A stretch of DNA of 31,732 bases. It comes from Candidatus Hermodarchaeota archaeon (GTDB lineage Archaea > Asgardarchaeota > Hermodarchaeia > Hermodarchaeales > Hermodarchaeaceae). This document shows positions 22,764 through 24,058 of the stretch, piece by piece. Under the pieces are notes generated by a model. It saw only the letters and a program-made list of their open reading frames with translations. It made no database searches and was not told the DNA's origin. The translations under genes were made by a program, and so were the position numbers. Location: the NCBI GenBank assembly GCA_016840135.1, contig JAEOSX010000007.1:1-31732 (forward strand), in the 5' to 3' direction. Position 1 is the stretch's first letter. Every line of letters begins with the position of its first letter.

Positions 22764-24058
22764 TTACAAATCGTTGAATGTGTGTATCTTAATTTTTACA
22801 GGTCTTTTTACTACATTCCCGATTCTTGCACCTATGATTAGACTAACTCCACGTTCACCAGCGATGTCTACAAGACGCTGGGTTATGACACCATCTAAGA
22901 TTATCGTTTTCGCTTTTTCTATCTCTTGTAGAATTGTAGCAAGCTCTGCAACATGAACTTCCTTCAAGATTTTCTTATCCTTGTCTAGTATTATTGCAGT
23001 CATTGTCTGTTGGATTTTCTCTGTTAACTCTCGTATTGGTTCAGGAATGGTTCCCTTTCTTGGTCGTGTAACACTTCTACTCGTGGTTTTAGAACGGGTT
23101 GTAGTTCGTCGTTTTGTGGTTGTTTTCTGTGTTGTGCGACGTGTTCTCCGCTTTGGAGATGAAGAAGCTCTAGCTGTGGCCGCCTCACTTGTTCCTCGTT
23201 TTATCCGTCCAACAATCTGGGATGCAGGCACTTTATTTCTCAGAGCCTTGGTTATCTCCTTTGTCGTTAGTTCTTCAACCTCACGCCCAGTTGGCGCTCG
23301 CGCGACAAATTTAATTTCAGTAACTTGGGACAATTCTTTGAGAATCAAGTCGCCACCACGATCTCCGTCTAGAAAGGCAATGATTGTTTTTGTCTTTGCG
23401 AGTTTTATGATTGAAGGGGGAATACTGGTGCCCTCAACTGCAACGACGTTCTTTATTCCTGCTCGAAGTAAAGCTAATACGTCTGCACGACCCTCAACGA
23501 CGATAATGGTTTCTGATTCTTGAACAGTAGGACCTGCTGGAAGCCCATTAAATCGAGTTATTTCTGCTGTCTTTGTCTCACGTGTAACCTTATCAGTTAT
23601 TTCCTGAGCGCCTGGAGAAGTCTCACCCTCCCATACGCGCAGTAAAGCTACGGCACGATCGATAATCCGTTTACGCTTAGAGTCACGGACATCCTCAACT
23701 TTTTCCAGAGTAATCTTCGCTGAACATGGTCCGACTCTGTCAACTGTCTCAAGCGCAGCTGCAAGAATTGCAGTTTCAGTACGGTCAAGGCTGCAAGGGA
23801 TTATTATTATTCCGCGAGATTTTCCTCCCTCTGAATGTAGTTCAACCTTAATTCGACCAATTCGTCCCGATTGTTGAAGTTCTCTTAAATCTAAATCTTC
23901 ACCGATTACCCCTTCAAGTCACCAGACGAGAAGTGTAGGCCCTCTGTTTGACCAAAGAGAGCTCCAACGACATCTGGGGTTTCCACAACTCCACTAATTT
24001 CCACTTTACATCGAATTTCATACTTTGTTGTAGCAGTACTAGGTGTACTTGAACCCAA
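22764..24058 (-). CDS. dnaG: Archaeal DnaG primase (Toprim), reading frame interrupted by a 29-nt insert
   Basis: Exon-1 frame from TTG 24058: [41 protein letters not shown], then stop TAA 23906-23908. A second frame, open downstream of TGA 23919-23921, reads [18 protein letters not shown]...IIVVEGRADVLALLRAGIKNVVAVEGTS...AFLDGDRGGDLILKEL... to stop at 22764. The ORF track shows only the last 194 aa because no ATG/GTG/TTG occurs between 23918 and 23348. Confidence 0.85.
23906..23934 (-). other. Candidate BHB-type intron within dnaG mRNA (29 nt)
   Basis: mRNA sense: GCCU-[ACA]-CUUC-(14 nt)-GAAG-GGGU-[AAU]-C. A 4-bp central helix GCCU/GGGU is flanked by 3-nt bulges on opposite strands, with inner helix CUUC/GAAG. 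Cutting after the 2nd nt of each bulge removes 29 nt and joins ...GGC CUA C|UC GGU GAA..., giving [17 protein letters not shown]. Confidence 0.5.

Follow-up and report, generated by a model that had tools for sequence, protein, structure and literature searches.

The closest described counterpart of the element analysed here is the intron in the pre-mRNA of cbf5, which was reportedly first found in 2002 and is said to have been described by Watanabe (2002) and Yoshinari (2006) in Desulfurococcales and Sulfolobales. Introns of this archaeal bulge-helix-bulge (BHB) class are recognized by the splicing endonuclease EndA, which cuts symmetrically after the second base of each 3-nucleotide (nt) bulge. 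In Crenarchaeota, the cbf5 introns are short, often have a relaxed motif, go with a hetero-oligomeric EndA, disrupt an essential residue and have been gained and secondarily lost (Yokobori 2009; PMC2738675). A 2020 paper gives cbf5 as the only further reported BHB intron besides its own case in a 5′ untranslated region (UTR; PMC7714728). The strict (hBHBh′) and relaxed (HBh′) forms of the motif are defined in PMC5829648. Here we examine a stretch of 31,732 nt from a Hermodarchaeota-like Asgard archaeon (contig JAEOSX010000007.1; referred to as the window), in which the gene for DnaG is interrupted by 29 nt. We interpret the 29 nt as an RNA-level BHB-type intron of the relaxed HBh′ form, to which we assign a probability of about 0.88. 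On the evidence of sequence comparison, it appears to be a small, protein-independent-looking intron inside a coding sequence that almost certainly needs to be excised from the mRNA.

The dnaG and cbf5 introns are alike in several respects. Both are short BHB-type introns within coding sequence, often with a relaxed motif, in lineages reported to have a hetero-oligomeric EndA, and both are restricted to a clade in which there has apparently been precise secondary loss. Each interrupts an essential conserved motif, from which it follows that splicing would be obligatory in both cases. The two host genes also both encode proteins of RNA metabolism (see also PMC5570065). The cbf5 intron differs in having a crenarchaeal host and in that its splicing has been shown experimentally, whereas the dnaG intron belongs to a Hermodarchaeota-like Asgard lineage and is known here from sequence. 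Membership of the cbf5-type intron lineage, defined by a catalytic-residue codon of cbf5 in Crenarchaeota, was considered and rejected; because both the host gene and the phylum differ, we place the dnaG intron, which would work in a similar way, outside that lineage. A preliminary description of this DNA, made from the sequence alone, had proposed dnaG as a new host gene, and the literature searched agrees, in that cbf5 is the sole archaeal coding sequence named for such introns (PMC7714728, PMC2738675). In the literature that we searched, in which subscription journals are thinly covered, there was no report of a BHB intron in dnaG or in any Asgard protein gene. Within the same literature, dnaG joins cbf5 as the second coding sequence in which a BHB-type intron is reported, and it is the first from Asgard archaea.

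DnaG is a subunit of the archaeal exosome. The gene lies on the minus strand (24058..22764) and is broken by the 29 nt at 23934..23906. The N-terminal frame, from a TTG at 24058, ends at a TAA (23908-23906), and the downstream frame, open only beyond the TGA at 23921-23919, continues to the stop codon at 22766-22764. Deletion of 23934..23906 leaves 1266 nt, i.e. 421 codons and a stop. The spliced protein matches NCBIfam NF003108 (DNA primase DnaG equivalog) over its full length with 508 bits, where the cut-off is 300 bits. The interruption splits the most conserved motif of DnaG. Cuts at AC|A and AA|U join GGC CUA C to UC GGU GAA, and the residues that result, GLLGE, are the consensus of other Asgard DnaG proteins. 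The preliminary description had set out the two broken frames and had claimed that removal of 29 nt restores them to one; on rechecking the minus strand, all of its statements about the sequence were correct, and the restored frame regains the consensus motif.

To place the interruption in context, we compared 160 dnaG loci fetched from genome and metagenome collections and a further 8 found via protein look-up. An insertion is present at exactly the same site in 26 Hermodarchaeota-like loci and in the window; the single exception within the clade is the locus L167, considered below. The 27 inserts measure 28 nt (n = 18), 29 nt (n = 7, the window among them) or 31 nt (n = 2), none of which is divisible by three. 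No interruption is present in any of the 141 other archaeal dnaG loci. In 134 of these the two motifs are exactly 36 nt apart; in the remaining 7, the motifs of which differ, continuity was established with tblastn. The 5-residue spacing that the preliminary description gave for archaeal DnaG is borne out by these loci, every one of which has an unbroken reading frame at this point. The comparison with relatives that it had called for also came out in its favour, in that the insertion is carried by 26/26 other clade loci and none of them encodes in frame the 14-amino acid (aa) linker that it had offered as an alternative.

Protein databases reflect the same interruption. A search with the exon-1 peptide returned 17 protein clusters of open reading frames (ORFs) of 47-71 aa, all of which stop at most 7 codons past GQTEGL, with unrelated tails (e.g. 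HLISKI). The closest proteins come from Asgard metagenome-assembled genomes (MAGs) labelled Hermodarchaeota/Hermodarchaeia and, in some cases, Hod-, Thor-, Odin- or Promethearchaeota. These matches are all N-terminally truncated gene calls, and several at 65-68% identity begin KQRAYTS..EG(A/V)IGEDLDL, a translation of this junction in the other frame. When the spliced N-terminal 110 aa were compared with the protein database, only short partial proteins from other lineages were found, at no more than 72% identity, and no further uninterrupted member of the clade.

The insert itself is conserved. Over the first 5 and last 10 positions of the intron, 11/15 are invariant among the 18 distinct sequences; the near-invariance of these ends compares with 28/31 variable third-codon positions in the flanking exons. 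The alignment indicates that the non-coding insert is under purifying selection and keeps its RNA fold.

The exceptional locus, L167, is a 1.5-kb contig (Ga0395754_008471, IMG 3300036486) that reads GGCCTAC|TCGGTGAAGAT, exactly the predicted junction. Only cuts at AC|A and AA|U give this junction; a shift of one base either way leads to a different sequence. In a bootstrapped neighbour-joining tree, all 200 replicates place L167 within the intron-bearing clade, and 194 of the 200 group it with the 28-nt loci. Its protein is identical at 285/286 aa (99.7%) to P0047, which is encoded on a 74-kb genomic contig from another sample (IMG 3300042731). Gene calls on that contig give a 49-aa ORF at 2278..2427 and then a 369-aa ORF starting at 2501. 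The 49-aa product is exon 1 with the intron read in frame, ending HLISKI*, a tail that is the same as in the sister locus L168 (CACTTGATATCAAAGATATGA). The spacing, 2501-2284 = 217 = 189+28, corresponds to a 28-nt insert; the intron of P0047 is accordingly one read from gene coordinates and from the product of the 49-aa ORF. Because L167 is identical at 285/286 aa to P0047, whose gene calls imply a 28-nt interruption, the comparison indicates that the same population exists with and without the dnaG insert. L167 would then be either cDNA made from spliced mRNA or an allele from which the intron has been lost precisely, and either of these confirms the exon-exon junction.

We folded each of the 18 distinct sequences with RNAfold and the alignment with RNAalifold. 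Without constraints, RNAfold finds the same pairs that had been proposed from the window, GCCU with GGGU and CUUC (23933-23930) with GAAG (23915-23912), and leaves the ACA bulge between them. The central helix has the 4 bp of an archaeal BHB intron (in L082 with a terminal G-A), and the 5′ splice site lies in a 3-nt bulge between two helices, H and h′. The hairpin h′ has 4-9 bp in total and holds all of the 28/29/31-nt length variation. Paired cells make up 93.5% in the consensus structure, compared with 34-50% when the pairing partners are displaced by 1-3 columns. Compensatory double changes occur at three hairpin pairs: CG>UA in the CUUC/GAAG stem and, higher in the hairpin, AU>GC (five sequences) and UA>AU. 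Helix H shows a change from G-U to G-C (5 sequences) and one from C-G to U-G (1 sequence). The covariation check that the preliminary description proposed for the two helices therefore finds both of them kept. A covariance model of the element has a single match in the window, which is the dnaG site (60.3 bits, E = 1.3e-15); run against the window and 73 loci, it gave no second copy and no other host gene.

The 3′ side of the motif is looser. In the strict hBHBh′ form the 3′ bulge is closed by an outer exon-exon helix, and here AAU or AUU is unpaired. The outer helix, which had earlier been described as nearly absent, is 1 bp directly adjacent or, in an alternative minimum free energy (MFE) form, GA/UC and AC/GU with GG opposite AA, i.e. 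a 2x2 loop and a 2-bp helix. We therefore class the motif as relaxed HBh′ and not as strict hBHBh′, the outer helix being limited to 1 bp or lacking support from covariation.

The window also carries part of the presumed splicing machinery. In the alignment of its EndA homologue (Table 1) with Methanocaldococcus jannaschii EndA (1a79), KEHSVYLV is aligned to EVTAKYFV; Tyr and Lys are kept, and since the catalytic His is replaced by Thr, the pattern indicates a structural (beta-like), non-catalytic subunit. Both the EndA structural-subunit-like gene and a non-canonical tRNA intron had been noted beforehand in the window, and both are present, the latter in the anticodon stem of tRNA-Thr(UGU). 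The boundaries of the tRNA-Thr intron are fixed by the cloverleaf. Drawn by hand, it has a canonical hBHBh′ motif (h GAG/CUU, H CGAC/GUUG; cuts AG|A and AA|C). A single rule, cutting after the second bulge base, fits both this intron and the dnaG intron 5 kb away. For Asgard archaea in general, an (alpha-beta)2 EndA is reported, the L1 loop of which makes relaxed motifs acceptable (PMC5829648), and non-canonical tRNA introns are reported to be extremely numerous in the genomes of some Asgard archaea (PMC11291895).

A tRNA-like gene with anticodon UAA lies close by at 29193..29262 (−). It matches positions 8-63 only of the Rfam tRNA model, just at the gathering score, and the ends of its acceptor stem are missing or interrupted. 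This may reflect another non-canonical intron, or a split or permuted gene.

Several observations weigh against an intron in dnaG. The 3′ splice site lies outside a closed 3-nt bulge, and the 2-bp outer helix shows no covariation. Covariation in the rest of the motif is modest because most of it is invariant, and its significance rests on 3 pairs. There is a G-A mismatch in H (L082) and a G-G mismatch in h′ (L168). A loose scan of the window, for sites that would join two ORFs and that combine a 4-bp helix and a 3-nt bulge with a hairpin of ≥4 bp, gives ~20 candidates. We judge these to be chance matches, since they occupy the ends of genes or other reading frames. Since the loose scan gives ~20 matches, geometry alone is not evidence; it is the comparative evidence that singles out the dnaG site. 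The catalytic EndA subunit (alpha, with the L1 loop) and RtcB are both absent from the window. Finally, L167 may be derived from DNA or from RNA, and a literature search on IMG samples 3300036486 and 3300042731 gave nothing useful on whether it comes from RNA. Near its C-terminus, a run of A contains a 1-nt frameshift (AAQK|KIQQ; L167:1138-1184) that P0047 does not have, which fits a low-quality or RNA-derived contig.

Four other explanations were weighed. Programmed ribosomal frameshifting, or translational bypassing, within the insert would give DnaG with ~10 extra residues or would skip them, and we regard it as very improbable. Every locus has an interval of at least 2 nt in which both frames are open, and the hairpin could stimulate a shift. 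However, inserts of 28 or 31 nt would call for a +1 shift and those of 29 nt for a shift of -1 (or +2), with both directions found among relatives at 90-91% aa identity (29 nt in the window, 31 nt in L001). The permissive interval is 2 nt in five loci and its sequence varies between loci, there is no conserved slippery motif among the insert-bearing loci, and the read-through peptides are not conserved. A frame-by-frame check for a programmed frameshift site thus found neither a conserved direction nor a slippery site. For bypassing, the match between take-off and landing sites, CUA/GUA, is broken in L004, L008 and L009, which have GCA in place of GUA. The exact absence of the insert from L167 argues against frameshifting and bypassing alike.

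No better placed is a split or decaying gene, whereby a 50-aa N-terminal peptide and a C-terminal fragment are made separately or dnaG is a pseudogene. Split genes are known in some archaea, and gene callers annotate two ORFs in all of the relatives. However, the exon 2 frame has no ATG, GTG or TTG for 190 codons past the junction, the first listed ORF start being a TTG at 23348; because there is no start over this distance, exon 2 is not translatable alone from near the junction. Nor is there a conserved start in the relatives. Both halves of dnaG are strongly conserved as protein in a clade that diverges to 62% identity, the insert is under apparent purifying selection, and none of the 27 loci has further lesions of the kind seen in pseudogenes.

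Marginally less probable again is excision at the RNA level by other means, whether a different nuclease or an element that cleaves itself. That the nuclease is EndA is something that we infer, and the 3′ site is non-canonical. Against this, a 4-bp helix, a 3-nt bulge and cuts past the second bulge base are the signature of EndA, and the tRNA-Thr intron obeys the same rule. Group I and group II self-splicing introns were considered and rejected: they need a core of hundreds of nt, for which 28-31 nt is far too small, and no Rfam family reaches threshold at the dnaG site. A sequencing or assembly error, in which a G has been dropped from the GGGG run at 23912-23909, has a negligible chance of being correct: one added G does restore an ORF in the window, with a linker 10 residues longer (14 aa), as the preliminary description rightly noted for this sequence, but the insert is present in 26 assemblies made independently in different projects, none encodes the 14-aa linker in frame, and a missing base is excluded because 28-, 29- and 31-nt inserts of differing sequence are not repairable by one indel.

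Given a BHB-type intron, a simple pathway can be proposed in which excision takes place on the RNA, with EndA as the likely nuclease and RtcB as the likely ligase. The gene would be transcribed as a single pre-mRNA, the junction of which would fold into the relaxed BHB (HBh′), comprising the GCCU/GGGU helix, the ACA bulge, the intron hairpin and the unpaired AAU. The heteromeric (alpha-beta)2 splicing endonuclease, which would also remove the tRNA introns of this genome, would cut at AC|A and AA|U. An RtcB-type ligase would then join the exons, so that the split codon C+UC becomes Leu, and the 421-aa DnaG with its universal motif would be translated from the spliced mRNA. Unspliced dnaG mRNA would give only the 50-aa peptide.

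The dnaG intron can also be set beside systems other than cbf5. Non-canonical tRNA introns (HBh′/hBH; PMC5829648, PMC11291895) share its motif architecture and cut positions and, presumably, the enzyme. Unlike tRNA introns, the dnaG substrate is an mRNA without a tRNA body, and removal must keep the reading frame. In the HAC1/XBP1 splicing of eukaryotes, cleavage by Ire1 is followed by ligation by RtcB/Trl1, and the XBP1 intron is 26 nt long. This resembles dnaG in that a very short non-spliceosomal intron, the removal of which changes the frame, is cut out by a protein endonuclease at stem-loops and the ends are joined by a tRNA ligase. It differs in that Ire1 is a kinase-RNase that recognizes twin stem-loops and not a bulge-helix-bulge, and in being regulated by stress. 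The BHB intron in the 5′ UTR of HVO_1309 of Haloferax volcanii (PMC7714728) is an EndA substrate within an mRNA, as that of dnaG would also be; it differs in its UTR location, canonical motif, homodimeric EndA and lack of effect on the reading frame.

A second host gene, fixed across an Asgard clade, would mean that the mechanism is no crenarchaeal oddity and is recruitable wherever a broad-specificity EndA exists. It bears on the origin and persistence of interrupted protein genes in the closest prokaryotic relatives of eukaryotes. There is also a consequence for annotation, as every Hermodarchaeota MAG examined has dnaG wrongly annotated, either as two ORFs or as a protein truncated at its N-terminus. 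An insert that splits a conserved motif, is not a multiple of 3 in length and has an HBh′ fold provides a search rule for more cases. More speculatively, and we consider this doubtful, the dnaG intron could be a control point that ties DnaG synthesis to the tRNA-splicing capacity of the cell (EndA/RtcB), or the first case of a wider set. If the former were true, RNA decay would be coupled to RNA maturation through DnaG as an RNA-exosome subunit. If the latter, Hermodarchaeota and other intron-rich Asgard archaea may hold more coding-gene BHB introns that are now called as split or truncated ORFs.

Table 1. Coordinates in the window of the dnaG exons, the predicted intron and its structural elements, and of the associated splicing features
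Feature	Position	Strand	Details
dnaG exon 1	23935..24058	−	TTG start at 24058; 41 codons; C at 23935 opens the split Leu codon
Predicted intron, 29 nt	23906..23934	−	A-CUUCUCGUCUGGUGACUUGAAG-GGGU-AA; removal restores the frame
Predicted splice sites	5′ = 23935/23934, 3′ = 23906/23905	−	
dnaG exon 2	22764..23905	−	Opens with UC of the split Leu codon, then GGU GAA GAU; stop codon 22766-22764
Central helix H, 5′ strand GCCU (exon 1)	23937..23940	−	Pairs with 23911-23908; MFE folds of 18/18 sequences and RNAalifold
Bulge B1, ACA, 3 nt	23934..23936	−	Invariant in 27/27 loci, unpaired in every fold; predicted cut past the second base
Intron hairpin h′	23912..23933	−	CUUC/GAAG base, 2x2 internal loop, GUC/GAC, loop UGGU
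Central helix H, 3′ strand GGGU (intron)	23908..23911	−	Folds and alignment
3′ splice-site loop B2, AAU	23905..23907	−	Predicted cut past the second A; AAU or AUU in relatives
EndA homologue, 221 aa	30613..31278	−	Pfam tRNA_int_endo_N and tRNA_int_endo
tRNA-Thr(UGU)	29010..29112	+	Found with Rfam, missed by ARAGORN; 31-nt intron at 29039..29069, anticodon stem, non-canonical position

Upstream of dnaG, close relatives carry a small gene with a Toprim domain that encodes 138-139 aa (L162:497-916, L163:514-930). At the corresponding place the window has only a 42-aa ORF (24221..24349, −), which matches the first 36 and last 6 residues of the small Toprim gene. This represents a clean, in-frame internal deletion of 291 nt with loss of the Toprim core, and could be either real gene decay or an assembly artefact.

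Elsewhere in the window, a 1251-aa ORF at 882..4637 (+) encodes a Ski2/Hel308-like helicase, with a large insertion at about residues 345-830 in which the translation alone shows homing-endonuclease-like motifs; the insertion is probably an intein. Genes for RNA processing are abundant on the minus strand (7216..7785, 10131..11054, 11068..12126, 18164..18739 and 25586..26452). Amongst them, Pfam identifies a LigT-like 2H phosphoesterase, Trm56 and Trm5/TYW2, and the assignments of an RNase Z-like protein and a THUMP/Trm11-like methyltransferase come from reading the translations alone. The window also contains a signal recognition particle (SRP) RNA and a 5S rRNA.

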